A stretch of 64,000 nucleotides of DNA, from positions 9,592 to 73,591 of the forward strand of contig CADAKF010000001.1 in NCBI GenBank assembly GCA_902788415.1. Direction: 5' to 3'. Below the pieces are notes generated by a model. That model saw nothing but the letters and a program-made list of their open reading frames with translations, made no database searches and was not told the origin of the DNA. Below, piece after piece: positions 1 through 44,390 of the stretch. Numbering within the stretch: the stretch's first letter is position 1; the number at the start of each line of letters is the position of its first letter. A program made the translations under genes and the position numbers. This DNA comes from an uncultured bacterium (GTDB taxonomy: Bacteria; Verrucomicrobiota; Kiritimatiellia; RFP12; UBA1067).

Positions 1-751
1 AGTCGCGCGTCACGTAGGCGGAGGGCGCGCCGAAATAGCCGCGGCCCTTCTTGAGTTTGCGCGGCGCCGGCATCAGCGCCGGAATCGGCAGGTCCGCCGC
101 GCCGTCGGAGACAGTCGCCCAGAGATTGGACGCCCAGCCGGCCGCCGCCGGAACCGCCGCAACGCCGTCGCAGGGCGCAACAATCTCGTGCACCTCGATC
201 TGGCGACAGCCGTCCGCGACGACGATCCCCTTCGGCACGGGCGTGGTGAAGCGGACGTTCGAGAGGCGTCCCGTGAGGACGCCGTCCGCGATCTCGATGG
301 CGCCCGCCTTCGCGTCGCAGACCTCGAAGTTACTGAAGATGAATCCGTTCACGTTCTTCGCGAGGATCGCCTTCGCGCCGACGAGCGCACCCTTCCTGGA
401 CCCGAGGCCGAGAAGCTCGATGTTCTTGTCGGGCTTGCCGCCCTTCGCGGACGCATTGCTGACAAGCGGACCCTCGAAGCCGGGTGCCGCCACGAGCCGG
501 GCCTCCTTGATGAGCAGCGAGAAGTCGCTCGGAATCTCGATCGTGCGGTCGAGAATCCAGACATTTTCGCCGCGGACCCTATTCTCGGCGGGAATGGTCA
601 TCCGGAAAGCCTTGGTTCGCACGCCTTCGGCGATTGCCTTCGCGATGCGCTCCGAATCGCTTCCGGTAAAGTCGTTCGGCGTGATTACCTTTTCCCCGCC
701 GACGGCGGACAGCGCCGCCGCAAGCGACAGCAGGAGGATTTTATTTTTCAT
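1..751 (-). CDS. Secreted right-handed beta-helix (pectate-lyase-fold) protein, C-terminus beyond window start
   Basis: Own translation of the minus strand from ATG at 749-751 (AAGGAAGG RBS upstream): MKNKILLLSLAAALSAVGGEKV... signal peptide, then repeats like NGFIFSNFEVCDAKAGAIEIADG; no stop before position 1. Absent from the ORF track because it runs off the window edge. Confidence 0.6.
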   Translation of the reverse strand, partial: MKNKILLLSLAAALSAVGGEKVITPNDFTGSDSERIAKAIAEGVRTKAFRMTIPAENRVRGENVWILDRTIEIPSDFSLLIKEARLVAAPGFEGPLVSNASAKGGKPDKNIELLGLGSRKGALVGAKAILAKNVNGFIFSNFEVCDAKAGAIEIADGVLTGRLSNVRFTTPVPKGIVVADGCRQIEVHEIVAPCDGVAAVPAAAGWASNLWATVSDGAADLPIPALMPAPRKLKKGRGYFGAPSAYVTRD

Positions 752-773
752 GTTTCGCCTTCCTTTCGGTTTG

Positions 774-1611
774 TCAAATCGCACGTCCGACCGCGCGGGC
801 GCCCTCGAGCGTGTTCCAGAGAAGCATGGTGATCGTCATCGGACCGACGCCGCCTGGGACGGGCGTGATCGCCGAGGCAACCTGCGCGCACGACTCGAAG
901 TCAGCATCGCCCACGAGCCGGTATCCTCTCGGCTTCGTCGCGTCCGGAACGCGGTTGACGCCCACGTCGATGACGACCGCTCCCTCCTTCAGCATGTCGC
1001 CCGTCACCGTATTCGGACGCCCCGCCGCGACAACGACGACATCCGCCTCCTTCGTGAACTTCGAGATGTCCGGCGTGCCCGTATGGCACAGCGTCACCGT
1101 CGCGTTCGTCTCCTTGCGCGGCGTGCTTGCCGCGGACGTCCATTCCGGAGAACTCGATGAGCTTGATGATCCCGTGCGGCGTGCACGGCAGGAAGCACGG
1201 CTCGCCGATCAGCATTTTCCCGACGTTGATCGGCGTGAAGCCGTCCACGTCCTTCTCCGGCGCAATAGCCCGAATCACCTTCTTCTCGTCAAACCCCTTT
1301 GGAAGCGGCAGTTGCACGAGGATGCCGTGGATGGCGGGATCGGCGTTCAGCGCCGCGATCTTGTCGAGCAATTCGCTCTCGGCGATCGTCGCCGGCATGC
1401 GGATCTCGCGCGAGTACATGCCCGCCTCGGCACAGGCCTTCTCCTTGGCCGTCACATAGCTGACGCTCGCGGGATTATCCCCGACGAGGATAACTGCCAG
1501 CCCCGGCGTCACGCCCTTTTCCGCCTTCAGCGCCGCAACGCCCGCGGCAATTTCGCCGCGCAGGTTCGCCGCGAGCTGCTTTCCGTCGATCAGTTTCGCA
1601 CGCCTCTCCAT
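774..1611 (-). pseudogene. folD: Methylenetetrahydrofolate dehydrogenase/cyclohydrolase FolD, disrupted by an approx 50-bp internal deletion/frameshift
   Basis: N-terminal 164 aa (MERRAKLIDGKQLA...[10 protein letters not shown]) lie in the 901..1692 frame. The C-terminal part ([17 protein letters not shown]...[11 protein letters not shown]) is in a different frame (774..1097 ORF). The GRSNIVGKPMA NAD(P)-binding segment between them is missing around nt 1119-1135. Confidence 0.55.
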
Positions 1612-1613
1612 GC

Positions 1614-3029
1614 TCAGTCCCTTCCCTTTTCGCTTGTTATCTCGTTTTCGCTCCACTCGATGTAGCGCACCTTCTTGTTCTCGACCACGCACCGCGCCTC
1701 GACGACATACTTCATGCCCATCGATTCGCCGATGATCGTCATTGAGAACTTCTCGGCGCCTTCGGACGCCCCGCCCTTCTTGTCCTTCCCGGTCGTGCCG
1801 GACGACGAGCTCGCGGCAGACTCCCCCGGCCAGCGGATGTATTCCTTGAGCTCCTCCGGGACCTTTTCGGCGAAACCGACGTCATCGACGCGCTTTTCCA
1901 GGTCGCTCATGTCCTTGAACGGCCACCAAGTGCGCGTCTCGTCGACATCATCCTCGTCCTCGGGCAAGGTCTTGAGCGCCGTCAGGATCGCCTGAACGAG
2001 ATCGGCACAGTCCTGACTGTCTGATGCGTCGTCCGGATCGTACATGGGACTCAGGATTGTCATCAGGTCCTTCTCGCGCGTCTCGTCATTCAATTCGAGC
2101 TTCAGCCCGCCCGAGACTTTGAAGTTATCCATGATGCCTGTAAGATGGGGATTGCTCTCGTCATCCTTGTCGCCCTTGCCCCGCTTGCTGCTTCCGTCAT
2201 CCCCCTCCGTATTGTCGTAAAGGCGCCCGCCCGTCAGCACGGACGGAAAGTCGCGGAAGCCCCGGACGTAGGACAGCTCCTCCAGCTGCTTGATCGGCCC
2301 GTTCGCCGGGACTCGCCGATCCTTGACCGGAATCTCGTCCTCCTCGTCGCGTTCCTCATACCAGGACTTCTCGGCGCCATCGTCATCCTGCGGGTTGTAG
2401 TCATAGTCCGATCCGGACTCAAAGGGCCCCCGCGAAACGGTGTCGTCTTCGTCACGCCAGTCTTTCCACGACGCCACCAGAAGGTTGATGAGGTTGTGGC
2501 GCTTGCGTCCGGACCTGTCGGCATCCGCCACCTCGACCTCCAGCTCGTCGTCGATTCCGCTGTTGCGCAGAATCGTCTTGAAGATTTCGAATCCCTTCTC
2601 GTCCGTCAGGCTGTTGATGTCAATTTTCGACTTCGCGCTCTCATACTTCAGTTTGACGGTAATGGCCGCGGGGGCGGTGTCGTCCTCCTCGCCTTCCGAC
2701 TCGTCCAGCTGGATCGGGCCGATCGTGCACTTGTGATCGTTCTTGAGGGCATACTTCTCGACCACCCAGCGATCGTCCTCGAAAGCGTCGTCCCATTCCG
2801 GAACCCCGCCCTTAATCTCCGGATCCGGCGCATCCATGTAACCCAGCAGAACGACTTCTCCAAGGACGCGTCCCGAGTCGATGAGACGGCTGACGCGGTT
2901 ACGCTCGCGCACGTAAATGTCGATGCCAGCCTGCTGCCGCGCCTCAAAGGCGAACGAGATGACCATGACGGACAGGATCGCGATGATCCAAAGCGCCATG
3001 ATGAGCACACTGCCGCGCCGCGCCGTCAT
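1614..3029 (-). CDS. gspK: Type II secretion minor pseudopilin GspK-like
   Basis: N-terminus RRGSVLIMALWIIAILSVMVISFA is typical of GspK; acidic low-complexity middle; last gene of the pseudopilin operon. Confidence 0.65.
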   Translation of the reverse strand: MTARRGSVLIMALWIIAILSVMVISFAFEARQQAGIDIYVRERNRVSRLIDSGRVLGEVVLLGYMDAPDPEIKGGVPEWDDAFEDDRWVVEKYALKNDHKCTIGPIQLDESEGEEDDTAPAAITVKLKYESAKSKIDINSLTDEKGFEIFKTILRNSGIDDELEVEVADADRSGRKRHNLINLLVASWKDWRDEDDTVSRGPFESGSDYDYNPQDDDGAEKSWYEERDEEDEIPVKDRRVPANGPIKQLEELSYVRGFRDFPSVLTGGRLYDNTEGDDGSSKRGKGDKDDESNPHLTGIMDNFKVSGGLKLELNDETREKDLMTILSPMYDPDDASDSQDCADLVQAILTALKTLPEDEDDVDETRTWWPFKDMSDLEKRVDDVGFAEKVPEELKEYIRWPGESAASSSSGTTGKDKKGGASEGAEKFSMTIIGESMGMKYVVEARCVVENKKVRYIEWSENEITSEKGRD

Positions 3030-3895
3030 TTCGTCCCTCCGGTCGATCCGCCCTGCGAATGCTCGTAGACAGGGATCTTCACGACGCGCACGATCGTCGT
3101 CTTCTCCTTCTGCGAAAAGAACTCGTCATCGCGTTGCTCCATGAACAGCGTCAGTTCCACGGCATAAGGGAAGCCCTTGTCCTCGAAGGTGTCCTGAACG
3201 GCGTCGGAGTCCTTGTCATAACTTCCCTTCTTGCCGCTCTTATCGTTCGTCTTCGACGGCGGCTCCTTGATCGTCCGGCAACGGAATCCGACCACCCCAT
3301 CCGCGACGAGGGTGGGCTGCGGATAGAGATCGTGCGCATCGTCCTTTTCGGTCGTGTCGGAGGCAATCGAGGGATCGACGAACGCGCGGGCGTAGAGCCC
3401 GGTCTTCTTCACTGGCTCCCGGAACCTGAACCGCTCGAACTTGTCGTCGTCGCCGTCCTCCGTGTCGCCCTCCTCGAGGATCATCACGCGCACGCGATGC
3501 GGCGCATCCGCAATCGCGTTCTCGCTACCGATGAGAGCGCTGCCCTTCTTCGTCCACTCGACGATGTCCGAGTCGCTCGGACGCTCCCCTTCGCGGTCAT
3601 AGGGATCGTAAAACCCGTACTGGTTTCGGTCCTTGCCGTCGCCCGTGCCGCCGCCCTTCGTCGTCTCGGACGATTTGCTCGAAGCGCTTTCGCCCCCCTC
3701 CGGCCAATAGGCGCTCCTGAGGGCGATAATGAGCTGATTGAGCGCATAATCCGTCCGTTGCATCTTGTCGAGGTAGTCCGTCGAGGCTTGCCAGCCGTGC
3801 GCGACGGCCTGGAACGTGAGGACGCTGAGCGTCGTGAGAAGCCCGACGAGCATCGTCGCGAGCAGCATCTCGATCATCGTGAACGCCCTTCTCAC
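3026..3895 (-). CDS. gspJ: Type II secretion pseudopilin GspJ-like
   Basis: Prepilin-like N-terminus (V->M)RRAFTMIEMLLATMLVGLL. The GTG start at 3895 overlaps the gspI stop (GTGA coupling); the longer N-terminal extension in the track is rejected. Confidence 0.6.
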   Translation of the reverse strand: MRRAFTMIEMLLATMLVGLLTTLSVLTFQAVAHGWQASTDYLDKMQRTDYALNQLIIALRSAYWPEGGESASSKSSETTKGGGTGDGKDRNQYGFYDPYDREGERPSDSDIVEWTKKGSALIGSENAIADAPHRVRVMILEEGDTEDGDDDKFERFRFREPVKKTGLYARAFVDPSIASDTTEKDDAHDLYPQPTLVADGVVGFRCRTIKEPPSKTNDKSGKKGSYDKDSDAVQDTFEDKGFPYAVELTLFMEQRDDEFFSQKEKTTIVRVVKIPVYEHSQGGSTGGTK

Positions 3896-4347
3896 GATTC
3901 CGGCTCCTTCCAGAGCACGATGTAGCTCTCCTGCTGCTTCTTGCCGCTGCCGCGTCCGCGTTCGCCCCAGGTGACCGTAATCTTCACGCGAAGAAGGCCG
4001 TTGAAGTGCTTCTTGTCCTCGTCGCTCATGTTCTTGTCGATGAGCTCGCGCTCCCACGTAAACCCGTGGAACTTCTCCTCCTGGCGGTCCGTCATCCGCT
4101 CGTCCGTGAGCATGCTCCAGAGCTCGGACACCTTGACCTCGCCCGTGTCGATGTCGCCCTCGTCCGTCACCGCGTCGAGCGGGTAGGCCATCTCGCCGAG
4201 GTCCATCACCTCTTGCGACGTCTCGAGATCCGGCACGGTCTTCATGAGCTTCTGCGACTGGGACATCGAGACGAGAATGCCAGCAAGCCCCGCGCCGAGA
4301 ATAATCGCCGCGAGCAGAACCTCAAGTAATGTAAATCCTCGTCGCAC
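3892..4347 (-). CDS. gspI: Type II secretion pseudopilin GspI-like
   Basis: MRRGFTLLEVLLAAIILGAG prepilin leader with conserved Glu at +5; 151 aa. Confidence 0.65.
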   Translation of the reverse strand: MRRGFTLLEVLLAAIILGAGLAGILVSMSQSQKLMKTVPDLETSQEVMDLGEMAYPLDAVTDEGDIDTGEVKVSELWSMLTDERMTDRQEEKFHGFTWERELIDKNMSDEDKKHFNGLLRVKITVTWGERGRGSGKKQQESYIVLWKEPES

Positions 4348-4348
4348 C

Positions 4349-4404
4349 TTAGACCTTAGACTTTAGACCTTAAACTTGAAACCTGAAACTTGAAACCTGA
4401 AACT
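4349..4404. repeat. Degenerate heptamer tandem array (AGACCTT/AAACTTG type) in the gspH-gspI spacer
   Basis: ttagaccttagactttagaccttaaacttgaaacctgaaacttgaaacctgaaacta; supplies the AAGG SD of gspI. Confidence 0.7.
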
Positions 4405-5218
4405 AATCTTCTTCCCTCCCGTCTCCGTCAACGACCTTGATCCCGCCGAACTGGTCGATATTCAGCATCAGGCCGTCCTCGGGCTTCTTCCCGTCTGGAT
4501 AAATCCAGATTTTGTGCGGCTCGACAGCGCCATTCGTCTCCCAGACGACGGACACCTCCCCGTCCATGTCGTTCACACTGCCTGATTCAGCCGCGGACCC
4601 AACGCCCTCTTCGGCTTCGGACTTCGCCTTCGACTCGGCTTTCGCCTCCTTGTAGCGACTCTGGAGATAGTCGACGTTCGAGAAGACCGAGATGCGCGAA
4701 CGCGTCTGCACGTCGGTCTCGTCCGTCAGCGCCTCGTCGCCCTTCTTGACGCGGATGCGCATGCCCTTGATGACGCTCGAATCCATCGGCGAGAAGAGGA
4801 TCTCCTCAATCGTCTCGCCGCCGCCGGACGAACCGCTGGATTCGCCCTCGGAGTTGACGGCCTTTGCCTTCGGTGCGAGCTCCTTGTAGTCCATCACGTA
4901 GTAGGGCCGGGGCTCCGGACGATCCGCGTCCGCGTTCATAATCTTAGCCGCGACAACCTCGACCTTAACGCATGTCTCATCGTCGATCTTTTCATTCGAG
5001 TAATTGACGACAACCTGCTGACCCGTGACGAGCGCGACCGAGCGGGCGTGGCGGATCGCCGCGTAGACGTCGCGCGTCGCGCCCTTCACCCGCGCAGCAC
5101 CCTGTCCGGACAGGATGCTGCCGACACCAATCGACACCATCGTCGCCAGGATGGCGCAGATGACCAGAAGCTCGATCAGCGTAAAGGCGCGGCGCACCTT
5201 ATTTCTTCTTCGACTCAA
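4403..5218 (-). CDS. gspH: Type II secretion pseudopilin GspH-like
   Basis: RRAFTLIELLVICAILA prepilin N-terminus; overlaps the gspG end. Confidence 0.6.
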   Translation of the reverse strand: MSRRRNKVRRAFTLIELLVICAILATMVSIGVGSILSGQGAARVKGATRDVYAAIRHARSVALVTGQQVVVNYSNEKIDDETCVKVEVVAAKIMNADADRPEPRPYYVMDYKELAPKAKAVNSEGESSGSSGGGETIEEILFSPMDSSVIKGMRIRVKKGDEALTDETDVQTRSRISVFSNVDYLQSRYKEAKAESKAKSEAEEGVGSAAESGSVNDMDGEVSVVWETNGAVEPHKIWIYPDGKKPEDGLMLNIDQFGGIKVVDGDGREED

Positions 5219-5630
5219 TCTTGTCGGAACGGATGTCGTCTTCCGTGCCGAACTCCGTGTCCGGGCCGGCGGAGATGATGACGAAGCGCTTGCCCTTCAC
5301 CTCGATCTTGTAGTCCGTGTCCCACGGGTCGACAAGCGCGCCTTCACCTCCGTCCAGGGCCGGCTCCTCGTCGCCGTCGGCCTTCACGAGAACCGTGAGG
5401 TCGCTCGGGGGCGTCGCCTTCTTCTTGCTGAGCATCCACGTCGTCACCGCGCCCTTGATGTTGTCCACCGCCGTCTTCGCCGCCGTCTTGCGCGTCGATT
5501 CGATGTGACCCGTCACGTTGGTGACGGCGACCGCACCCAAGATGCCGAGAATGGCGACCACCACGAGAAGTTCCACAAGCGTGAAGCCGCGCTTCATCGA
5601 CTCGACAACCACATTTTCTTCTTTTTTCAT
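5199..5630 (-). CDS. gspG: Major pseudopilin GspG
   Basis: MKRGFTLVELLVVVAILGILGAVAV is the classic GspG/PulG N-terminus (true start may be the second Met at about 5597); GGEGALVDPWDTDY C-terminal region. Confidence 0.8.
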   Translation of the reverse strand: MKKEENVVVESMKRGFTLVELLVVVAILGILGAVAVTNVTGHIESTRKTAAKTAVDNIKGAVTTWMLSKKKATPPSDLTVLVKADGDEEPALDGGEGALVDPWDTDYKIEVKGKRFVIISAGPDTEFGTEDDIRSDKIESKKK

Positions 5631-5677
5631 TTCAGCTTCCTTTCAGGTTGAGGACTTTAGACTTGAGACATAAGACT

Positions 5678-7210
5678 TTAGGCCGCCGCCGTCGCCTGCC
5701 ACCAGGCGAAGCCGCCGAGCGCCAGAAGGACAAGCACGAGAAGTGCGAGCCAGACCTTCGCCATCGGATCCGGTGCGCACTTCGTGAACCCGCGCGCCCG
5801 CTTCATCGAGAAGCGCATCGGACGGTTGATCGCCCAGCCGCAGGCGTTGAGGATTACGCCGAGGTCACGCTTGCGGAGCTTGAACCACGCAAGGATCATG
5901 CTCGGCACTGAGACGATCATCACGAGCGCCACAAGCGCCACGCCAATCTTCCACGCCGGCATCGACGAGATGGCCGCCATGAGCGACGCCGCCGCCGCAC
6001 CGACCATGCCGATGCCGATGCCGATCGCCGCCACCGAACTCGCCATCGCCGCGCCGCCGGCCTGCGTCGACTCCGTGCCCTTCTGGACGGATCCCGTCGC
6101 CTTGGACTGCTTGTCGCTGATGAACTTCTTCACCATGCCCGCGATGCCGTCGCCGATCTTCTTCCACGGCGCCCAGAACGCCTCCTCGAGCGAGACCTGG
6201 TTCTCGACCACCTTGGTGATGACCGCCTCCCAGTCCTTGCCGTCACGGTCGTAGAAGACACCGTTGCGGCCGACGTAAAGCGTCCCCACCTTGCCGGCCG
6301 TCACGACCGCGCAGATGAGGCGCTCCGCCTTCTCGGACGGACGCGAGAGCTTCAAGTAGATGACGCAGCAGTTCGACTTCTCCACGAGCGCAGAATGTGC
6401 CGCCTCGCTGGCGACATGGAAACAAAGGTTCATCTCGCGCGCGTCAATGCGGAGAACGCCGTTCTGGAAAATCGCCGTATCACTCTTGTAGAGGCGGTCC
6501 ATCGTGACGTAGTTCTCGAGAAGCTCGCCGAGATGCAGCTTGTAGCGGAGGAAACGCTCCTCCTCCACGAGATCGTCCTTCGAACCGGGGCTCATCACCG
6601 GCTTCGCCGCAACCCACTCCCGATACTGCGCGAACTTCGCCTTCACGGCCTTCCACTCCATGCGGGAAAGGCAGTCCTTGCCCTCGCCGAGAATCGGTTT
6701 GACGCACTTCTCAGCAAAATCGAGGATCGCCTCAAGGTACTTTGGGTTCAGATGCTCTTTGAGGGGCAACACCTTATCCGGCTCCTCTGTGACGAGCGGC
6801 ATATCCTCTGGAGGCGTAAAGAAGTCATCGACCGTCTTCTCAATCGCTGCAAGCGACGCCTCGGCCGCCGCGGTCGCATCTCCGAGGATAGCGACCTCGG
6901 GCGTCTTGCCTTTTTGCTCCCACTCAGTCCTCGCGGCCTTCTCAAGCTCGGACGGCTCCGCCTTGTCGAGTTCGGCCTGGCGTTTCAGAACATCCGCAAG
7001 TTTCTTCGCGTCCTCCTCGGACGGACGGGCGAGGTCGTCGAGCGAAACACCCTTCGACTTCAAGTACTCGAGGGCTGCCTGAACCTCCGGCGAGCGCACG
7101 CGCCCGTCGCCGTCCGTGTCCATAAGCTGCAATGTCCGAAGGTCAAACCTCACACCCGTCGTCGGACACGCAATTGCATACCACTGCTTCAAATCTTTGC
7201 TAATCGTCAT
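5678..7210 (-). CDS. Hypothetical membrane protein with N-terminal EF-hand-like Ca-binding loop; first gene of the pseudopilin operon
   Basis: DTDGDGRVRSPE matches the 12-residue EF-hand loop (DxDxDG...E); about 380-aa soluble N-domain; 3-4 C-terminal TM helices (IGIGIGMVGAAAASLMAAI..., VALVALVMIVSV..., VWLALLVLVLLALGGF). No recognisable Gsp family. Confidence 0.5.
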   Translation of the reverse strand: MTISKDLKQWYAIACPTTGVRFDLRTLQLMDTDGDGRVRSPEVQAALEYLKSKGVSLDDLARPSEEDAKKLADVLKRQAELDKAEPSELEKAARTEWEQKGKTPEVAILGDATAAAEASLAAIEKTVDDFFTPPEDMPLVTEEPDKVLPLKEHLNPKYLEAILDFAEKCVKPILGEGKDCLSRMEWKAVKAKFAQYREWVAAKPVMSPGSKDDLVEEERFLRYKLHLGELLENYVTMDRLYKSDTAIFQNGVLRIDAREMNLCFHVASEAAHSALVEKSNCCVIYLKLSRPSEKAERLICAVVTAGKVGTLYVGRNGVFYDRDGKDWEAVITKVVENQVSLEEAFWAPWKKIGDGIAGMVKKFISDKQSKATGSVQKGTESTQAGGAAMASSVAAIGIGIGMVGAAAASLMAAISSMPAWKIGVALVALVMIVSVPSMILAWFKLRKRDLGVILNACGWAINRPMRFSMKRARGFTKCAPDPMAKVWLALLVLVLLALGGFAWWQATAAA

Positions 7211-7229
7211 GACAGCTCTTCTGCCTTGT

Positions 7230-7250
7230 GCAATTATGGTAATTATAGCA
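7230..7250 (-). promoter_or_regulatory. Candidate sigma70 promoter of the T2SS pseudopilin operon
   Basis: Minus-strand TTGCTATAATTACCATAATTG (TATAAT -10) about 33 nt upstream of the ATG at 7210; AAGG/GAAGAG RBS. Confidence 0.35.
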
Positions 7251-7368
7251 AATTCAGGCGGAAAACGGATAGAGAATCGGCAAAAGAATCATCGATACGG
7301 CAAACGCCACCGCGCTGAGGGCAAGGCCCGGACGGAAGAAGTCACGGAAACGCCGACGAATCAACCGC

Positions 7369-8274
7369 TTAACTCTCCAGCGTCGCCTGAATCGCCGCGA
7401 GGAGCTCGTGCTTCTCGCCCGGCTGAAGCGTCCGGCCGTCCGGCCAATCGGAGACCGGCTCGACGCAGACAAAGCGCTTCCAGTCATCCGGCGTGTGATC
7501 GTCGACCACATAGGCCGTGTCGGGATTCCACACGACGGTCTTTCCGTTGCCGCTCGAGACGAGCGCGATGGCGCGCTTCAATCCCGCGTCCAGAATCGCG
7601 AACTCGTGCTTGGGCGCCTGCGGCATTGCAAAGATGTGGTCGTACTCCTTTGTGACGGCGATGTCACCCGACTGGACACCCTCGGCGGGCTTCGGCCCCG
7701 ACGCGTCGATGTAGGCGCAGCCGTCAAGCCCGCGCACCGTCGCGCCGTTGCGGTCCCGGAGGAGAAAGTACGGATGAAACCCGCAGCTGAAGCCGAAGGG
7801 CTCCGAACCCGTGTTCGTCGTCGTCAGCTTCAGGTTGAGCTTCATCGACACCGAGACCTTGAGCTCAAGGTCGAAGTCATGCGGCCAAAGCTTCTTCGTC
7901 TCCTCGTCCGACTTGAGTCCCAGCGTCAGCTCGGACATCTCCTCGGAGTACTCCGTGCCACGCACCTCGAACACCATCTTGCGCGCGAAACCGTGCTGCG
8001 GCAGGTCCTTTGAGAAGCGGTTGCCAAACTGCGGCCAGCAGACGGGAATGCCGCAATGCACCCCGTCACCGCGGTTGTAGTCGCGCTTCGCGGGACGGAA
8101 CAGCACCTCGGCATGGCCCGTCGGACGATAGGAGAGCACATTCCCGCCCAAGAGCGAAATCTCCGCCGACCCGTACTTGCTCGCGAGCACCGCAACCGGA
8201 TACCCCGCAAATCCGTCGCGGAAAACAATCCGCCCCGGCGCCCCGAACCTCGCATTCAGCTGTTCACACGTCAT
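7369..8274 (-). CDS. yeaD: Aldose 1-epimerase family, glucose-6-phosphate 1-epimerase (YeaD-like)
   Basis: VLFRPAKRDYNRGDGVHCGIPVCWPQFG, GFARKMVFEV, HPYF motifs typical of D-hexose-6-P mutarotase. Confidence 0.75.
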   Translation of the reverse strand: MTCEQLNARFGAPGRIVFRDGFAGYPVAVLASKYGSAEISLLGGNVLSYRPTGHAEVLFRPAKRDYNRGDGVHCGIPVCWPQFGNRFSKDLPQHGFARKMVFEVRGTEYSEEMSELTLGLKSDEETKKLWPHDFDLELKVSVSMKLNLKLTTTNTGSEPFGFSCGFHPYFLLRDRNGATVRGLDGCAYIDASGPKPAEGVQSGDIAVTKEYDHIFAMPQAPKHEFAILDAGLKRAIALVSSGNGKTVVWNPDTAYVVDDHTPDDWKRFVCVEPVSDWPDGRTLQPGEKHELLAAIQATLES

Positions 8275-8287
8275 CGCCCCAACCTCC

Positions 8288-9925
8288 TCACTTCTTCGTG
8301 AAATACGGCAGGCGCGAGAGCGGCGTCTCGACCTCGACCGTCTTCGGCCCCGTCACCACGCTGCCGTCGTCCGCCGTCCAGGTGCCGGACGGAATGAAGA
8401 CGGTGCGCGTCTTCGCGCCCTTCACGACCTGTGGCGCGACGAGCAGCTTCGAGCCGAGCATGAACTGGTCGGTCAGCCTCTCCGCGCCCTCGCCCGGGAA
8501 CTCGTACTCCATCGCCCGAAGCATCGGCTCGCCCGACTTCGCGGAGTCCTTCGCGACGGAAAGGATGTAGTCCGCGAACTTCATGCGCGTCCACGCCGCG
8601 GCGCGGACCGCCTCCAGGTGCTCGCCCTTCAGCATACGCCAGGGCGCGGCGGAAAACTGCATCATCGGCGCGAGCGCATGCGCCTGGGCGCTGCGGACGA
8701 AGAGCTCGGGGTCGAACGGCATCGGCGCATCGGGCATGAACGCCATCCAGCTGCCGCCGCCGATCATGTCGGGGCAGACGAACGAGTGCCCCATCAACCC
8801 GCAGTTGATCATGTCGGGGACGAGCTGCTGCACGGCCGCCCAGTTGTGGCCCTTGTCGCAGAGCCGCTGCACGAGGGGCTGTCCGCCCATCTTGAAGCAC
8901 GCGCGGTACTCGTTCAACGGAAACTCAAGCCCAATCTTCGCATACGCCTCGCAGAGCTCGCTCGGCGAGGCCGCCCGGTACGTCACGTAAGGCGGCTGAA
9001 ACTCGTCGATGTCGCCGGCGTCCAGCTTGAAGCCGTCCACACCGAAGTCGTCCTGCAGGCGCTTCAGCTCGCGAGCGAACCACGCCGCCCCGAGCGGATG
9101 CGTGAGGTCGAGGATCGCGCTCACGCCGTTCCACCAGGCCGTCGGCTTGGCGAAGCCCTGGCCGTACACCGTCTTCTCCTTGCACATCACGAGGCCGCCC
9201 TTCTCACAGTGCCGGCCGGCGTCGCGCGTGCCGAAGACCATCTCGCGGTAGCCAGGCGAGTCCATCGACACGAACGGACACACCCACAGCATCACCTTGT
9301 AGCCGAGCGAGTGGAGTTCGTCGCACATCGCCTTCGGATCGGAGAACCGCCGCGGATCGAACTGCCAGATGCCGTAGCCGTACTGCCAGGTGTCGTCGAT
9401 CATGATGACGCCGCCCTCGGGGAACCCGTTCGCCTTGATCGCCTTCGCGTAGGCGAGGATGTCCCCCTGGTTCTGATTGTAGGTGAGCTCGATCCAGGTG
9501 TTCCACTGGGGCTTGGCGACAAGCGCGAGGTCGGGCACCTTGCCGCTCGCCGGGAAGTGCTTCTTCGCCGCGGCGAGAAAGGCCGTCCGCAGGTCCTTGC
9601 CCTCAGTCGCAAGAACGATCGGCGCATCGCCCGTAAAGGTCAGGACGCCGTCCGCGAGCGTGCAGGCGAACGCCTTGTCGCTCCAGACCGAACGGCCCTT
9701 CGTGGACACGAGGAGCGGCACCGCCTGGTTCTCGTAGTTCATCTTGCGGATGTCGAAGTCGACCGCACTGGTCTTGAGCCCGTACGGCGCCTTCGTGCCG
9801 TAGACCGTCGCGCCGCCCCACCAGCCTTCGCCCGGCAACACCTTGACCTTTAGTTCCTCGGCTCCCGCCGCCAGCGCCGTCGCCAGCGCAACCGCCGTCA
9901 CAACCCTCATCATTCGCGTCTTCAT
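8288..9925 (-). CDS. Secreted glycoside hydrolase, probably GH31-like (YihQ/alpha-glucosidase fold)
   Basis: Signal peptide MKTRMMRVVTAVALATALAAGA; IMIDDTWQ and FGVDGFKLDAGD resemble GH31 catalytic regions. Confidence 0.5.
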   Translation of the reverse strand: MKTRMMRVVTAVALATALAAGAEELKVKVLPGEGWWGGATVYGTKAPYGLKTSAVDFDIRKMNYENQAVPLLVSTKGRSVWSDKAFACTLADGVLTFTGDAPIVLATEGKDLRTAFLAAAKKHFPASGKVPDLALVAKPQWNTWIELTYNQNQGDILAYAKAIKANGFPEGGVIMIDDTWQYGYGIWQFDPRRFSDPKAMCDELHSLGYKVMLWVCPFVSMDSPGYREMVFGTRDAGRHCEKGGLVMCKEKTVYGQGFAKPTAWWNGVSAILDLTHPLGAAWFARELKRLQDDFGVDGFKLDAGDIDEFQPPYVTYRAASPSELCEAYAKIGLEFPLNEYRACFKMGGQPLVQRLCDKGHNWAAVQQLVPDMINCGLMGHSFVCPDMIGGGSWMAFMPDAPMPFDPELFVRSAQAHALAPMMQFSAAPWRMLKGEHLEAVRAAAWTRMKFADYILSVAKDSAKSGEPMLRAMEYEFPGEGAERLTDQFMLGSKLLVAPQVVKGAKTRTVFIPSGTWTADDGSVVTGPKTVEVETPLSRLPYFTKK

Positions 9926-9952
9926 GCGCTCGATCTTATGCTTTCGTCAAAC

Positions 9953-10029
9953 TGGTGGGACCGGGGAGAATCGAACTCCCAACCTCAAGTTTAGGAAACT
10001 CGCGCTCTGTCCAGTTGAGCTACGATCCC
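9953..10029 (-). tRNA. tRNA-Arg (anticodon CCT)
   Basis: Hand-folded cloverleaf: acceptor GGGATCG/CGGTCCC, D-arm GCTC-AACTGGACA-GAGC, anticodon stem CGAGT/ACTTG with loop TTCCTAA, T-arm GGGAG-TTCGATT-CTCCC, encoded CCA. Confidence 0.85.
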
Positions 10030-10037
10030 AGTTAAAT

Positions 10038-12542
10038 TCATTTCTTCGCCTTCACGCCGAGGTCGCTCAGCTTCATCGAGATGACGCGCGAAACGCCCTT
10101 CTCCTGCTGGCTGACACCATACACGAGGTCGCTGCCGGCGATCGTGTGCTGGTTGTGCGTGATGATCAGGAACTGGCTCTGCCGGAGGAACTCCTTGAGC
10201 TGCTCGACGAAGCGGCCGATGTTGGCGTCGTCGAGCGCAGCGTCAAGCTCGTCCAGCATGCAGAACGGCGCCGGCTTGATCATGAAGATCGAGAAGAGGA
10301 GCGCCACAGCGGTCATCGTGCGCTCGCCGCCCGAGAGAAGTGTCACCGACTGCGGACGCTTGCCCGGAGGACGCGCGATGATGTCGATGCCGCATTCAAG
10401 CGGATCCTCCTCGTTCTCCAGGAGGACGAGACGCGCCTCGCCGCCGCCAAAGAGCCGCGTGAACATCGTCTGAAAGTTCTTGTTCGCCTGCTCGAACGTC
10501 CTGTGAAACATGTTGCCCGACGTGTCGTTCAGATTGCCGATCAGTTCCAGGAGCTGCGCCTTCGCAGCAAGAAGGTCCTCCTCCTGTGCCTTCTCCCTCG
10601 CGTAGCGTTCCTCGAGCTCGCGGCACTCGTCGATCGCGACCATATTCACCGGACCGAGCGCGGCGATCTCCGCCTGCAGCCGGCCGACAGTCCCCTCAAG
10701 CTCCTCCATCGGCGGAACAACACCCTTCTTCCACTCCGGATCGGGCTCGCGCATGACCGCGTCGGCGAAAAGGCCGTACTCGTCCTGCAGGTGCTCGTAG
10801 ACGTTCTGGCGGCGCATCGTCGCCTCGGCGGCCTGCACCTCGAGTTTGCCGCGGAAGTCTTTCGCCTGGTCGAGCTCGGCACGGCGGCCGGCGACCTCCT
10901 GGTCTGCCGCCGCGATGCGCTCGAGCATCTCCGCGCGCTTGCCGCGCTCGGCGTTGATCTCGTCAACGAAACTCGCCGCCTTCGCCTTCAGCTCGTCGAG
11001 CTGTGCAAACAGGTCGCCGGACTCCTCGGTCAGGCGGGCAATCGACTCTTCGTAGCCGCGAATACCCTCTTCGCGCGCAGCGACCGTGCGCTCCAGCTCC
11101 TCGCGGCGGTTCTTCGCGACCTCGTTCTGCTGCCCGACGAACGAAAGCTCCTGCTCCATCTGGCTCACGGCGATGCGCTGCTCGGTAAGCTTCTGGGACG
11201 CCGGAATGTTCTTGAGCTCAACGGCGCGAAGCTCGTCCTCCGCCGCTGTCACGACCGCGAGAAGGTCTTCGCGCTTCATCATCGTCGTCACGGTCGTCCC
11301 GGCCTTCCAGGTTTCGACCGCATCGTTGCGGCTGACCTGCGCGTCATTGACGAGCGTGCCCGTGCGCGTCGTGTCCGCCACCTCGCGGCGCCGCGCGGCG
11401 ACCGCTTCGCGGCGGGCGTCGATCTCCTTCTGAAGCGAATCAAACTCCTCTTCGGCCGCGGCAAGCGACTCCTTCGCGGCAGCCAGCGAGTCGGTCAGGA
11501 GCTGCGTCTTCTGCTCCAGCGACTCGGCCTGCATCTTCACCTCTTCGAGCGCCTGCTTCGAACCGGCGATCTCGGCCGTATCGCGCGCGACATAGCCCTT
11601 GTATTCCTCGACGCGCTGGGCGTTGACGCCGATCACCTCGTTCGCACGGCTGTAGGCGCCTTCGGCGGCCGCCTGCTGCGAGGCGAGCGTCTGGAGGCCC
11701 TCCTCAAGCGCGTGGATTTGCTGATGAAGCTCCTGTGCGGACTGCTCGGCCGCCGTCACAACTTCGGTCGCCTCGGCAATCGCCTTGTCAATCTCGTTGC
11801 GGTTCGTCGCGTTCTGCTCGAGCTCCTGATCGTAGCCGTGAATCTTCTGCTTGGAGACATAGATGTCGAGGCCCTTGAGCTGGTCGCGCAGCTCCTTGTA
11901 CTTCTGCGCCTTGCCGACCTGCCGCTGTAGCGAGCCGATCTGCCGCTTCATCTCGCGGAGAACATCCGCCTCCCGGAGAAGGTTCTGCTCGGTCTGCTCG
12001 ATCTTGCGGAGAGCCTCCTTGCGGTCAGACTTGAACTTGGTGATGCCGGCCGCCTCCTCGAACACGGCGCGGCGGTCTTCGGGCTTCGACGAAAGAATCG
12101 CGTCGATCTGGCCCTGCGCCATCACCGAATAGGACGACGTGCCGATGCCCGTGCCCATGAAGAGGTGCTGGACGTCCTTCAGGCGGCACGCCTGCTTGTT
12201 GATGAAATACTCGCCCGAGCCGTCGCGGTAGACGCGGCGGGTGATCGTCACCTCGTGATAGTCGGTGCCGAGCTCCTTCTCGCAGTCGGCGAAGGTGATC
12301 GAGACCTCCGCGAGGCCGAGGGGCTTGCGGGTGTCGGTGCCGTTGAAGACGACGTCGACAAGCTTGGAGCACCGCAGGGCCGTCGGCTTCTGCTCGCCGA
12401 GGACCCAGCGGATTGCATCGGAAACGTTGGACTTACCGCAGCCGTTCGGCCCGACAATGGCGATGAGACCCGGCTCGAACGTGAGTCGGGTCTTGTCGGC
12501 AAAGCTCTTGAAGCCGATGATATCGAGCTGCTTGAGGTACAT
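10038..12542 (-). CDS. smc: SMC-family chromosome segregation ATPase, unusually short (834 aa) with no recognisable hinge
   Basis: N-terminal Walker A GPNGCGKSN; C-terminal LSGGERTMTAVALLFSIFMIKPAPFCMLDELDAALD signature/Walker B; the central region is continuous coiled-coil-like sequence without a Gly-rich hinge. Confidence 0.75.
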   Translation of the reverse strand: MYLKQLDIIGFKSFADKTRLTFEPGLIAIVGPNGCGKSNVSDAIRWVLGEQKPTALRCSKLVDVVFNGTDTRKPLGLAEVSITFADCEKELGTDYHEVTITRRVYRDGSGEYFINKQACRLKDVQHLFMGTGIGTSSYSVMAQGQIDAILSSKPEDRRAVFEEAAGITKFKSDRKEALRKIEQTEQNLLREADVLREMKRQIGSLQRQVGKAQKYKELRDQLKGLDIYVSKQKIHGYDQELEQNATNRNEIDKAIAEATEVVTAAEQSAQELHQQIHALEEGLQTLASQQAAAEGAYSRANEVIGVNAQRVEEYKGYVARDTAEIAGSKQALEEVKMQAESLEQKTQLLTDSLAAAKESLAAAEEEFDSLQKEIDARREAVAARRREVADTTRTGTLVNDAQVSRNDAVETWKAGTTVTTMMKREDLLAVVTAAEDELRAVELKNIPASQKLTEQRIAVSQMEQELSFVGQQNEVAKNRREELERTVAAREEGIRGYEESIARLTEESGDLFAQLDELKAKAASFVDEINAERGKRAEMLERIAAADQEVAGRRAELDQAKDFRGKLEVQAAEATMRRQNVYEHLQDEYGLFADAVMREPDPEWKKGVVPPMEELEGTVGRLQAEIAALGPVNMVAIDECRELEERYAREKAQEEDLLAAKAQLLELIGNLNDTSGNMFHRTFEQANKNFQTMFTRLFGGGEARLVLLENEEDPLECGIDIIARPPGKRPQSVTLLSGGERTMTAVALLFSIFMIKPAPFCMLDELDAALDDANIGRFVEQLKEFLRQSQFLIITHNQHTIAGSDLVYGVSQQEKGVSRVISMKLSDLGVKAKK

Positions 12543-13306
12543 CAGCCCTCGGCTTCGAGTGCGGCGTCGACCTCGTCGGTCGTCTCCATGTTCGTGTAGA
12601 CGTCCTGCGTGTCTTCGAGGTCCTCGAGCATGTCGACGAGCTTGTTGACAGCCTTCGCGACCACCACGTCGGACACGGGGCTCGTCATGTTCGGGACGAG
12701 GCCGATGTTCGAGTTCTCCTCGTCGATCGCAATGCCCGCCGCCTTGATGGCGTCAGAAACCGCCACGAAATCGTTCGGCTGGCACTTCACGGTGAATCCG
12801 CCGTCCTCGCTGACGACGTCCTCCGCGCCCGCCTCGAGGGCGACTTCCATCACCTTGTCCTCAGAAAGACCGTCCGCCGCCGGAATCATGACCTGGCCGA
12901 GCTTGTCGAAGAGACGCGACGCGCTGCCCGGCTTCGCGAGCTCGACACCGTTCTTCTTGAAGACGTTCGAGACCTCGGCCGCCGCACGGTTCTTGTTGTC
13001 CGTAAGGACGCGCACGACGATCGCGACGGAACCCTTGATCGCCTCGTACTGCGCGTCGACCATTTCGGCCGACTCGAGCTCGCCCGTGCCCTTCTTGATG
13101 GCACGCTCGATGTTGTCGTTCGGCATCTGCGCCGCCTTCGCCTTGGCGATGAGCGTGCGGAGCGTCGGGTTGTTGTCGGGATCACCACCCTTCGCCTTCA
13201 CGACAATGGTGATTTCCTTGCCGAGTTTCGAGAAGATCTTTCCCTTCTTCGCATCCGCCGCGCCTTTCGCGCGCTTGATTGTCGCCCAGTGGCTGTGACC
13301 TGACAT
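12542..13306 (-). CDS. yebC: YebC/PmpR family DNA-binding regulator
   Basis: MSGHSHWATIKRAKGAADAKKGKIFSKLGKEI... is the canonical YebC N-terminus. Confidence 0.9.
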   Translation of the reverse strand: MSGHSHWATIKRAKGAADAKKGKIFSKLGKEITIVVKAKGGDPDNNPTLRTLIAKAKAAQMPNDNIERAIKKGTGELESAEMVDAQYEAIKGSVAIVVRVLTDNKNRAAAEVSNVFKKNGVELAKPGSASRLFDKLGQVMIPAADGLSEDKVMEVALEAGAEDVVSEDGGFTVKCQPNDFVAVSDAIKAAGIAIDEENSNIGLVPNMTSPVSDVVVAKAVNKLVDMLEDLEDTQDVYTNMETTDEVDAALEAEG

Positions 13307-13348
13307 GTGTGCTCCTTAGTTGGTAGTTGGTAGATGGTCGTTGATAGA

Positions 13349-13576
13349 TTAGATCTTGTGGCGGTAGGTGATGCGGCCCTTGCCGAGATCATACGGGGAG
13401 ATTTCGACCGTGACCTTGTCGCCGATCGCAATCTTGATGAAGAACTTCCTCATTTTGCCGGAGATGTGCGCCAGCACCTCGTGCCCGTTCTCGAGCTGCA
13501 CCTTGTACATGGTCGCCGGCAGAACCTTCGTGACGGTTCCCGTGACCTCAATCGCCTGATCTTCTTCTTTTGCCAT
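13349..13576 (-). CDS. infA: Translation initiation factor IF-1
   Basis: [44 protein letters not shown]...; 75 aa S1-like fold. Confidence 0.95.
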
Positions 13577-13592
13577 AATTAGGAATATTGTA

Positions 13593-14354
13593 TCATTTTA
13601 AGCCGCCCGTGGCAACCAGGACACTGACGGCGAAAAGAGCCGCCGTTTCCGCCCTCAGGACCGTCGGGCCAAACGAAGTCGGAACCGCGATCTCAAGAAG
13701 CGCCGCCAACTCGGCCGGCGTGAAATCCCCCTCGGGACCGATGAAGACCGAAAAATTCCGCTGTTCACCTTTACCTCTCACCTTCACCTGTGACGCCACG
13801 GCCTCGGCCAACGGTCGAGCCGGCGGCGTCACCAGCGCGCCGACGAAACAGGTCGTCTCCTTCACCATTTCCAACGCATCCCTGAAGTTGACCGCCTCGA
13901 CGATCTCCGGCAGCCACTTTGCGTCCGACTGCCGCGCCGCGTCCTCGGCAATACGCATCCAGCGCTCGCGCTTCGCCGCGCGCTCCGCCTTGGGAATGCG
14001 GACAATCGTCCGGTCGCTGATGACGGGGACGATGCGCGTGACGCCGAGCTCCGTCGCCTTCTCGACCGTCCAGTCCCAGCGCGACCCCTTCGTCACGCAG
14101 GCGAAGAGGGTCAAGGTTTGAGAGGTTTGAGAGGACTGAAAGGCTTGAGAGGTCGCCAAGAGGGGAGAAGCGGATTCCTTTCCGCTCGCAAGCGAAGCGC
14201 AAAACCTATAAACTCTCCACTTCCCCTTCCCGTCGAAGAGCTCGATCTCCTCGTCGTCTTTGGGACGAAGAACCTTCAGATGCCGCGCCGCGTCCGCCGG
14301 CAGAACCGGCGACGTCTCCTCCAACACATGCGTCTCGACTAAAAGTCTATGCAC
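13593..14354 (-). CDS. rsmE: 16S rRNA (uracil1498-N3)-methyltransferase RsmE, carrying in-frame repeat insertions
   Basis: Conserved PUA N-terminus and C-terminal [16 protein letters not shown]...[10 protein letters not shown]; insertions [14 protein letters not shown]...SQTSQT and [10 protein letters not shown] are encoded by repeat DNA. Confidence 0.8.
14164..14205 (-). repeat. Palindromic mini-element (family C) copy 1, in-frame in rsmE
   Basis: GGAGAAGCGGATTCCTTTCCGCTCGCAAGCGAAGCGCAAAACC; near-identical copies at 22141-22183 and 57336-57362. Confidence 0.8.
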
Positions 14355-14374
14355 CTTCTCCCCCTCTCACCTTC

Positions 14375-15451: not shown

Positions 15452-15474
15452 ACCCCTTCTCAATCCCTGATCCC

Positions 15475-16866: not shown

Positions 16867-16877
16867 TTGAACCTCCC

Positions 16878-18059: not shown

Positions 18060-18565
18060 GCGGCGGGAATCAGGAACAGGAGAACGAGATTCGTCAGGTT
18101 GAAGAGCCCGTGGTTCAGGATCGCATAGCAGAGGCGGCCGGTCTTCTTGTAGAGCCAGCATTGGGCAAGACCGAAGAAGAAGAGGGCAACAAAAGCCGAG
18201 TCCGGAAACGGCTGGAAAACGTAGTGGGCGGCGGAAAAGAGGACGGATGAGACAACCGCCATCAACCTCGCAAGTGCACGGTTTTTCATCGGAGCGTCGG
18301 AGCATCCGACCAGCCGACCAAGTGCGGAATAGATTCCTTTTCTGAAAATCAGTTCCTCAACGGCCGGGAGGAGGAGGAGAATCTGCACACAGAGGAAGGC
18401 GAACTGCCAGTTCCAGCCAGCAACCCTGCGGACAATCTCGAGGTTCTCCTGGTCCGGCAGCTCGACGCCGACCCACTTGGCGACAACCTGCGTCAGATAG
18501 CAAAGGCCGATGGTCGCAGCTGCGATCACCGGCCAGGCCTTGAGGGTTAGTTTGAGGGAGGACAT
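18056..18565 (-). CDS. CPBP family intramembrane metalloprotease (CAAX protease-like)
   Basis: EELIFRKG, FSAAH and HGLFN motifs; start taken at MSSLKLTLKAW. Confidence 0.7.
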   Translation of the reverse strand: MSSLKLTLKAWPVIAAATIGLCYLTQVVAKWVGVELPDQENLEIVRRVAGWNWQFAFLCVQILLLLPAVEELIFRKGIYSALGRLVGCSDAPMKNRALARLMAVVSSVLFSAAHYVFQPFPDSAFVALFFFGLAQCWLYKKTGRLCYAILNHGLFNLTNLVLLFLIPAA

Positions 18566-18646
18566 AAGACGGAAGAGAGGAGACGCGAGAGGACGTAAGA
18601 CGTGAGACGACTGGCGTAAATGTCTCACGTCTCTCGTCTAAAGTCC

Positions 18647-20458: not shown

Positions 20459-20483
20459 TTTTCTGTTTCTCCCGAATGGGCGT

Positions 20484-20489: not shown

Positions 20490-20491
20490 TC

Positions 20492-20530: not shown

Positions 20531-20554
20531 GTCTGACTAAGAAAGAAATTTTTC

Positions 20555-44387: not shown

Positions 44388-44390
44388 GTT

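Follow-up and report, generated by a model that had tools for sequence, protein, structure and literature searches.

Arrays of 7-9-nt tandem repeats in intercistronic spacers and in-frame loops of an uncultured gut Kiritimatiellae genome

Tandem heptamer repeats have been known for decades in a few bacterial groups, and their origin and function remain unsettled. The STRR heptamers of cyanobacteria reportedly comprise several families, each dispersed at many intergenic loci of a genome. As the survey of Mrazek, Guo & Shah (2007) is summarized in two later papers (PMC4679880, PMC4692102), heptanucleotides are the commonest class of long simple-sequence repeats (SSRs) in many prokaryotes and are ascribed to polymerase slippage. 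The GGGNATC and GGGGA(C/T)T heptamers of Xanthomonas and Nostoc are genome-wide, transcribed and of unknown function (Rehm et al. 2015, PMC4692102), and TAACTGA direct repeats occur in marine Beggiatoaceae, some cyanobacteria and Bacteroidetes, with a Shine-Dalgarno (SD) motif in about 10% of the repeat-containing spacers of the BOGUAY genome (MacGregor 2015, PMC4679880). Here we describe arrays of this kind in a 64-kb stretch of DNA (the window; assembly GCA_902788415.1, contig CADAKF010000001.1, positions 9,592 to 73,591) from a lineage of uncultured gut Kiritimatiellae found in human and ruminant metagenomes. The window has a G+C content of about 62% and carries nearly all of its genes on the minus strand; counts refer to it unless stated otherwise, and positions are window coordinates. 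It contains real tandem arrays of 7-9-nt units that are concentrated in non-coding DNA and that gain and lose whole units among conspecific strains. We regard them as SSRs of the heptanucleotide class (5-11-nt units), a class known but poorly understood, and not as a dedicated ribosome-binding-site (RBS) cassette.

The period-7 arrays noted in eight regions by an initial annotation of the window are genuine. The best autocorrelation period between 4 and 12 was 7 in all eight, and seven were significant against shuffles (P for the best period 0.0005-0.0075, corrected for period choice); the eighth, 36841-36880, was marginal (P for period 7 = 0.047) because one of its steps is 8 nt. Ten promoter-type control spacers showed no period-7 signal in the autocorrelation test. 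Tandem Repeats Finder called period-7 or period-14 arrays at 4346-4404, 5648-5678, 13317-13347 and 30463-30489, together with many further arrays of period 6-9, and 13 array sites beyond those first listed extend from 14114-14152 to 62624-62658 (Table 1). The 2.8 kb of non-coding DNA holds six period-7 arrays against 0.03 expected from local-composition shuffles, a roughly 200-fold excess, as well as two of period 8 (0.07 expected) and one of period 9 (0.03 expected). Strict arrays number 11 across the whole window versus about 0.85 expected, and the non-coding 4.4% of the window contains 9 of the 17 arrays of period 7-9.

Comparison of independent metagenome assemblies encoding identical neighboring proteins (conspecific contigs) revealed alleles that differ by whole units (7, 14, 21 or 28 nt), in keeping with the slippage expansion and strain length polymorphism anticipated by the initial annotation. 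The gspI spacer has four alleles of 27, 55, 62 and 69 nt, separated by whole-heptamer steps, with the last unit and the GTG start constant. Two contigs have a shortened right, GCTAAAM arm of 34594-34695, one by 7 nt and one by 21 nt. In the spacer that follows the phosphatase gene (15452-15474), the GGGATCA array is 14 nt (two units) longer in six conspecific contigs, and one scaffold (L002) has an N-gap there. The U32-lnt spacer (36839-36879) has 31 extra nt with added AGAC units in two contigs. In the RlmD-like gene, strains differ in the coding GGGATCA array by three units, exactly 21 nt, and the proteins are 402 versus 408-409 aa long. Length varies in the longest, purest arrays alone, and degenerate arrays are length-fixed, as expected for slippage-prone SSRs that decay by point mutation. 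The arrays thereby show all three hallmarks of long SSRs, namely head-to-tail 5-11-nt units beyond chance, non-coding enrichment and whole-unit copy-number instability.

The explanation we favor, and hold to be probable though well short of certain, is that 7-9-nt SSRs tend, throughout the lineage, to arise, change length and be replaced where constraint is weak, and that their effects on spacing, stop codons, SD motifs and RNA structure are incidental. Slipped-strand mispairing (template realignment) during replication or repair would change unit number, and point mutation would afterwards degrade old arrays; slippage is supported because whole-unit polymorphism appears in independent assemblies and is confined to long, pure arrays. 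Arrays would persist at weakly constrained sites, such as promoter-less co-transcribed spacers, the last codons and stops of genes, and protein surface loops or interdomain linkers. Within open reading frames (ORFs), selection would admit only length changes that keep the frame (three units, or 21 nt) and would remove in-frame stops. Any influence on expression looks like a by-product: the arrays set the stop-to-start distance, occasionally provide a stop or an SD-like AAGG or GAGG, and yield low-GC, mostly unstructured leaders, and two inverted arrays of one family are predicted to pair into a hairpin.

Promoter content appears to differentiate the spacers of the window, every one of which lies before a start codon. 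In one class, an extended -10 box (TGnTATAAT) directly follows the upstream stop and there is no array (61609-61637, 56489-56537, 51299-51321, 49767-49809, 44222-44390, 31189-31270, 27082-27099, 20381-20554, 13577-13592 and 7211-7368). The lone, partial exception is 56489-56537, the only promoter-bearing spacer with an array, in which degenerate GTTTYCA heptads accompany the box. At 51299-51321, 27082-27099 and 13577-13592 the box ends no more than 12 nt before the ATG, which suggests leaderless or very-short-leader mRNAs. The other class lacks a promoter-like box and carries arrays: apart from the exception just named, no array spacer has a TGnTATAAT box. Here units of 7-8 nt start at or before the upstream stop and often reach within a few nucleotides of the next start, and in about half of the co-directional spacers the array stops 0-17 nt short of it. 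On the coding strand these spacers begin taaGGTCT.., taaGTCTAAG.., tagCTATTAGCG.., tagCGGTTAAGAGG.., taaGGGATCAGGG.. and tagTTTCAGG... A scan of window 1-20000 for consensus sites placed neither a promoter-like nor a terminator-like site on an array.

Arrays also extend into genes. The proposal that they supply the last codons and stop of the upstream gene holds for kdsB and likewise for the YibE_F and KAS genes, and units cover the end and stop of hisD too. Placement in the spacers before start codons is correct for the regions first listed but is not exclusive, as arrays also run in frame within ORFs, where they form hypervariable loops: two in the RlmD-like gene, one (of 9-mers) in RsmE, two in Lnt and two in the U32 peptidase. 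In the TAACCGCT array, the two frame-0 units read CAA, whereas out-of-frame units retain TAA; the occurrence of CAA exactly in the frame-0 units points to translation through the array and selection against stops. Three-frame stop cassettes were considered as a function and rejected: TAA or TAG is common in the units, whose lengths of 7 or 8 are not divisible by 3, but stops occur in 29 frames versus 27.9 expected.

Table 1. Repeat arrays of the window, with units given on the coding strand (autocorrelation at period 7 is abbreviated ac7).
Feature	Position	Strand	Description
gspI spacer	4348-4402	-	Entire 55 nt is array, from pseudopilin-like ORF stop TAG (4403-4405) to gspI-like GTG at 4347; about 5 GTTTCAR units, then about 3.5 AAGGTCT, the final unit placing AAGG 6 nt before GTG; ac7 = 0.82, P = 0.0005; little predicted structure (z = +1.9)
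gspG spacer	5649-5677	-	GTCT core + 3 variable nt (GTCTTAT GTCTCAA GTCTAAA GTCCTCA), from the upstream ORF's stop; gspG SD AAAGGAAG outside array; length constant in 11 strain contigs
infA-yebC spacer	13307-13348	-	NCTACCA heptads leading into SD TAAGGAG; P = 0.0015; constant in 15 contigs
RsmE in-frame array	14114-14152	-	9-nt units CCTCTCAAA, residues ~58-71
YibE_F end / rsmE spacer start	14354-14392	-	8-nt units GAGAAGGT/GAGAGGGT, supplying YibE_F last codons and TGA
After alkaline phosphatase TAA	15452-15474	-	GGGATCA/GGGATTG units directly 3' of TAA
aspS to CPBP-like spacer	18566-18646	-	AGAC heptads, then inverted GTCT heptads; P = 0.0005; arms pair in a predicted long imperfect hairpin without U-tail, -31.7 kcal/mol, z = -3.7 (folded 18560-18650)
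Degenerate CTCYYAA-type heptads (4)	24623-24652	-	Upstream gene's last codons, stop and 21-nt spacer; ac7 = 0.70, P = 0.0045
kdsB end / azlC spacer	30439-30487	-	Five GTCT cores exactly 7 nt apart with five different 3-nt linkers; first two encode kdsB end (..RSDV) and stop, others are the azlC spacer; no SD; two strain SNPs, neither within GTCT cores
ParA-like spacer	34019-34067	-	8-nt units GGTTAAGM from upstream stop; last unit (GGTTAAGA) yields AGAGGTG as SD; constant in 11 contigs
YchJ-like stop region	34594-34695	-	TTAGC-type heptads including YchJ-like stop; inverted GCTAAAM, about 5 units, abutting next ATG; arms pair in a predicted hairpin, -37.9 kcal/mol, z = -4.5 (folded 34590-34690)
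Lnt C-terminal hypervariable part	35291-35317	-	GGTGAA/GGTGAAA, in frame
Lnt hypervariable loop	36452-36484	-	33-nt element, CAGAGACA-type 8-nt units, in frame
U32 peptidase to lnt spacer	36839-36879	-	AGAC cores at 7, 8, 7 nt; reverse orientation of GTCT family
U32 peptidase in-frame array	37467-37502	-	8-nt units CATCGGAG/CATCCGAC
U32 peptidase, second CAGAGACA element	38317-38349	-	In frame, reads LNPETQRHRG; SNPs among strains
Spacer before type II secretion ATPase (GspE-like) gene	46929-46960	-	GCTGTTA/GCGATTC heptads (TTAGC family)
hisD end / LpxL-like spacer	53339-53386	-	TAAGGTT, TAAGGTC, TAAGTC, TAAGATC .. units over hisD end, stop and LpxL-like spacer; P = 0.0075; no SD
KAS end / fabA spacer	55144-55211	-	TTAGC+NN (4 units; KAS last codons and stop) plus inverted partial copy; weak predicted hairpin before fabA, z = -1.7 (folded 55140-55200)
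KAS gene spacer	56497-56520	-	Degenerate GTTTYCA heptads between TGGTATAAT promoter box and SD; P (period 7) = 0.0145
RlmD-like segment 2	62481-62515	-	8-nt units TAACCGCT, in frame in hypervariable segment
RlmD-like segment 1	62624-62658	-	GGGATCA, about 5 units, in frame; G-quadruplex motif on mRNA strand

The position of the arrays just before start codons could also mean that they act in translation. The initial annotation read them as modular RBS/spacer cassettes, with units carrying the SD AAGG and copy number tuning downstream translation, an interpretation we find quite improbable. AAGG does lie 6 nt before the gspI-like GTG, the ParA-like gene has AGAGGTG, the yebC array leads into TAAGGAG, and spacer length differs among strains. 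However, an SD-like motif occurs 3-12 nt before the start in just 4 of the 14 genes behind array spacers versus 24 of 42 other genes, and this scarcity means that the cassette interpretation is not general. Array-derived SD motifs are restricted to the gspI-like gene (AAGG), the ParA-like gene (unit-derived AGAGG) and, in part, yebC, so that the proposed role of AAGG as SD is plausible for the gspI-like gene and for no other. Furthermore, copy number changes upstream of a constant last unit (the SD-bearing unit and GTG are the same in all four gspI alleles), most families (GCTAAAC, CAACTAC, TTAGCGG, CTCTCAA and the AGAC orientation) have no SD character, and arrays also lie within ORFs and at gene 3' ends.

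Array location persists between related species while the units themselves turn over. Whether the segments in Lnt and U32 are insertions was settled from orthologue alignments, PDB alignments having been uninformative (that to E. coli Lnt begins just past the segment, and U32 had no match). RlmD-like orthologues are near-invariant save for 2-3 fixed segments that hold unrelated low-complexity peptides of variable length, and the DNA of these hot spots consists of other arrays, namely GTTGAGARG (9 nt), TCTAGC+N3 (9 nt), CGAACAAT (8 nt) and CTACAA. Lnt orthologues follow the same pattern at about five hot spots, with the insert wholly absent in some species; overall, the hot-spot inserts in both proteins are arrays of other 6-10-nt units. 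In the RlmD-like orthologue of the related contig L111 (gene 1501-2793), the third hypervariable segment contains a 108-nt in-frame insert of GAAGTGAAGAG-type units and their reverse complement, a potential hairpin within the coding region. Spacers behave similarly: in L112, a contig of a related species syntenic with the window, the U32-lnt spacer is 117 nt of CAATCGAA octamers versus 41 nt of AGAC heptads here, the ychJ spacer holds a GTTTCAG/GTTGCAA array and the parA spacer a GTGCCTG array. Since these orthologous spacers are built from arrays of other units and lengths, the array nature is conserved and the sequence is not. The L112 U32 gene also contains an array of CATCGGAG units, which, with GTTTCAG/GTTGCAA, is an isolated cross-species unit match.

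The same propensity is visible in a wider sample of 80 related loci, found through an SMC-like gene, which share no neighbors with the window and were used purely as random genome samples. In these 1.2 Mb from 80 related species, non-coding arrays of periods 7, 8 and 9 number 14, 19 and 15, versus 0, 1 and 3 for periods 5, 10 and 11, and about half of the arrays of period 7-9 fall in the ~11% of the DNA that is non-coding. Period-7 regions occur once per 4.9 kb in the window and once per 20 kb in the relatives, making the window about four times denser. Array density in the relatives is 0.63/kb in co-directional, 0.35/kb in divergent and 0/kb in convergent spacers, the latter two classes being too small to test. 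A unit repertoire common across species was not demonstrated: a 6-mer in common with the relatives' arrays was found for 8 of 11 window units versus 6.4 under the null (P = 0.25, a crude test). Two further repeats were seen in relatives. One contig end of a related metagenome-assembled genome (L076, 14681-15565) has alternating CGCAGAGG and CTCTGCG(A/T) arrays every 80-250 nt, and a 9-nt unit, ACAGGATTT/AATCCTGTA, is tandem in intergenic DNA of L028, L034, L036, L047 and L049 (e.g., L036 9707-9732), where it may be part of a conserved element instead of a simple SSR.

The unit sequences are more diverse than the single repeat family suggested at first: at least seven families are present, whose periods are 7, 8 or 9 and which occur in either orientation. 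Units on the coding strand include AAGGTCT or GTCT+N3, GTTTCAR, NCTACCA, TTAGC+NN and its complement GCTAAAM, GGGATCA, GGTTAAGM and its complement, GAGAAGGT, CAGAGACA, CATCGGAG and CTCTCAAAC. The GTCT family occupies seven segments, the TTAGC family five and the others two each; GTCT is in forward orientation at four loci, appears as AGAC at 36839-36879 and takes both orientations at 18566-18646.

Several features of these families weigh against a neutral, purely local origin. Unit-sharing pairs across loci number 88 versus 57.7 +/- 7.0 (P < 0.001) under a null that keeps tandem structure and composition, and in L112 a stretch of 2.2 kb holds CAATCGAA arrays at four sites, of which one is intergenic and the other three lie in frame. 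Mismatches between units cluster in two or three phases and leave 4-5-nt cores intact (P ~0.005), as in GTCT or TTAGC+NN, though 14-nt duplications may account for part of this conservation. Single-nucleotide polymorphism (SNP) diversity (pi) in intergenic arrays is 0.0062, lower than at second codon positions (0.0097) or in other intergenic DNA (0.0144); first and third codon positions have 0.0115 and 0.0251. Finally, no cause has been demonstrated for the confinement to periods 7-9. The low array diversity, intact cores and unit sharing hint at something beyond neutrality, and purely local slippage explains neither these features nor the L112 sites or the restricted period. Binding sites, dispersal or structure may contribute to the conserved cores, low diversity and family recurrence.

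The intact cores could relate to protein binding. The heptads may be periodic sites for an oligomeric RNA- or single-stranded-DNA-binding protein that controls translation or coupling within operons, with a cold-shock-domain protein, S1 or a TRAP/HutP-like ring as candidates, comparable to a proposal made for the Beggiatoaceae TAACTGA repeats. We consider this unlikely, yet deserving of real weight. It would fit cores that are conserved while linkers vary, the low SNP density of intergenic arrays, the location of arrays in transcribed spacers and not in promoter spacers, and the shortage of SD motifs after array spacers, a trait in common with the BOGUAY genome (PMC4679880). Conversely, seven or more unrelated cores would demand several binders, one family occurs in both orientations relative to transcription, orthologous spacers of related species hold unrelated units, copy number varies freely among strains and no candidate protein has been identified.

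Unit sharing between loci, in turn, is what copy-and-paste or templated spread would produce, whether the agent is a mini mobile element, an enzyme that adds repeats from few templates or ectopic template switching between arrays; such dispersal would account for identical units at many loci and in frame in genes, but we judge it unlikely. Besides the excess of sharing within the genome, it draws on a 33-nt element (GATTTAAAC-CAGAGACA-type units-GAGGC, including non-repeat flanks) that matches the window twice (36452-36484 and 38317-38349) versus 0.00 expected. The two copies lie in the unrelated Lnt and U32 peptidase genes in the same phase, in frame, and both read LNxETxRxRG; related species differ at the Lnt copy, some sharing it and others lacking it or having a different sequence in its place. 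The four CAATCGAA sites of L112, the match of its ychJ-spacer GTTTCAG/GTTGCAA array to the window's gspI-spacer unit and the inverted-array insert in the L111 RlmD orthologue are also consistent with dispersal. On the other hand, no transposase, target-site duplication or defined termini were seen, and the cross-species unit sharing reported above is not significant. Whole-array copying in the TTAGC family has no evidence behind it, since its arrays match each other equally in and out of register.

Selection for nucleic acid structure would explain subsets of the arrays, with GGGATCA forming G-quadruplexes, inverted pairs forming hairpins that stabilize or process mRNA, and direct arrays serving as unstructured leaders, but as a general account it is very improbable. 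Five GGGATCA units fit the pattern G3N4G3N4G3N4G3 (62619-62657, minus strand; motif only), and related GGGNATC repeats form G-quadruplexes in vitro (PMC4692102). Predicted folding is much stronger than in shuffles for two of the 14 spacers (z = -3.7 and -4.5) and weakly so for a third (z = -1.7); for the gspI spacer, 198 of 200 shuffles fold better than the native sequence. However, the mean z over the 14 spacers is -0.44 and direct arrays, though weakly structured, scatter about 0, one hairpin arm is 1-3 units shorter in some strains, and the hairpins have no U-tail, with no terminator-like site on an array in window 1-20000. The array capable of forming a G-quadruplex lies inside an ORF, and some strains have too few units for one. 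Deliberately unstructured leaders were likewise rejected as a general description, given that z scatters about 0 and three spacers are hairpins.

A more speculative possibility is that the arrays are not passive products of slippage but traces left by a dedicated mechanism of this lineage, which would write or maintain a few 7-9-nt units (with 4-5-nt cores such as GTCT, TTAGC and CAATCGAA) at many permissive sites, both intergenic and in frame. Such a mechanism could add repeats from a template or switch templates ectopically at breaks; alternatively, selection could act via core-specific nucleic-acid-binding proteins organizing translation in SD-poor operons. We regard this as unlikely.

Each of the described heptamer systems shares some traits with the window. 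The several heptamer families dispersed over many loci of one genome resemble STRR, although STRR belong to another phylum and the STRR1-3 units (CCCCAGT, TTGGTCA and CAACAGT) are not tandem in the window. To our knowledge, occupancy of whole spacers and of reading frames is not a described STRR feature. GGGAATC, GGGGACT and GGGGATT are not tandem in the window either, and TAACTGA does not occur in it. Like the GGGNATC repeats (PMC4692102), the arrays favor gaps flanked by co-directional ORFs, lie no more than about 50 nt from a stop or start, have inverted copies that may form stem-loops, and diverge widely in length and sequence among close relatives. The window's GGGATCA is predicted to be G-quadruplex-capable as well, having at least four G3 tracts with short loops, but it arranges G-tract and loop differently and is one of about seven families here, most of them unrelated and not G-rich, whereas the GGGNATC repeats have one dominant G-rich unit with four copies preferred. 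The TAACTGA repeats similarly lie a few nucleotides before starts, in the place of the RBS, with canonical SD motifs rare and no functional pattern among downstream genes (PMC4679880); they differ in having a single unit, mostly in one orientation, where the window has several families, both orientations and coding copies. The long SSRs of the Mrazek survey, as later papers present them, are the same in their tandem 7-nt (to 9-nt) units beyond chance, non-coding enrichment, lineage-sporadic occurrence and attribution to slippage. That account names Burkholderia, cyanobacteria, actinobacteria and Xanthomonas, not Kiritimatiellota, and its ORF repeats are mainly multiples of three, whereas 7- and 8-nt units are common in frame in housekeeping genes here.

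Other repeat classes are more distant. Phase-variable contingency loci, with SSRs in promoters or 5' coding regions, likewise undergo slippage that can shift 5' spacing; the window's arrays concern housekeeping genes, with no ON/OFF switch evident, and were not assigned to this class because the coding change is exactly 21 nt and intergenic changes spare the last unit and start codon. A CRISPR array was ruled out, as the units are 7-9 nt and contiguous versus 25-40-nt repeats with unique spacers. REP/BIME palindromes, which are 20-40-nt imperfect palindromes dispersed in many copies, do not match either: the basic unit is a direct 7-9-nt repeat, and only 3 of 14 spacers fold, through inverted arrays, with no search for a RAYT gene made beyond the window. 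The repeat units within genes of Borgs are multiples of 3 nt and longer. Borg tandem repeats are described as pervasive and fast-evolving, lying between and within genes and, when genic, giving low-complexity disordered segments (bioRxiv 10.1101/2022.05.18.492195). Borgs are archaeal extrachromosomal elements, whereas the present units of 7-9 nt lie in a bacterial chromosome; the likeness, which concerns the in-frame units, is one of outcome. A full-text literature search returned no paper connecting Kiritimatiellae with such repeats. The combination of many families in one genome, intercistronic spacers made wholly of arrays and 7-8-nt units in frame at fixed hot spots of housekeeping proteins seems unusual.

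The gene context of the arrays agrees with the initial annotation, whose names were borne out for GspG, a pseudopilin (N-methyl motif), YebC, a CPBP/Rce1-like protein, AzlC, KdsB, Lnt, HisD and an LpxL-like acyltransferase. The gspI-like product begins MRRGFTLLE, a prepilin-type leader. In the pseudopilin-like ORF upstream of the gspI spacer (4403-5197, minus strand), the middle segment varies by strain (GSAAESGS.., SASPLGGS.. or EEKIASGS..; 264-277 aa in all), and the last ~50 residues are conserved. The gene taken for SMC (10038-12542, minus strand) encodes an 834-aa SMC_N/AAA protein that is 65-91% identical in the 80 related species; its loci there have zero neighbors in common with the window and its length is about 834, 887 or 1098 aa, and it may be a mobile or defence-type ATPase and not the chromosomal SMC. 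Between the RlmD-like and MiaB-like genes, a four-gene block (58508-61608; LemA, an M48 peptidase and two small ORFs) is missing in conspecific contigs L107 and L108, where a 46-nt promoter-type spacer separates the two genes. A 740-nt stretch left uncalled by a simple gene caller (21813-22552) is spanned by an ORF at 21834-22646 (minus strand). Rfam 15 covariance models at the gathering score detected two tRNAs in the window and no RNA family matching the arrays; these genes lie at 44302-44384 (plus strand, one of very few plus-strand features) and 9956-10029 (minus strand).

The lineage is a dense case with many unit families, and hundreds of gut-metagenome assemblies from the same and related species are public, so that the turnover of arrays by gain, loss and replacement can be followed at orthologous spacers and fixed protein hot spots. 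Why unit length is 7-9 nt, and whether arrays originate in place or by dispersal, can thus be tested with data already available. In practical terms, the arrays break scaffolds and mislead start-codon and gene calling. They also make strain-variable loops in otherwise invariant housekeeping proteins and could serve as strain markers.

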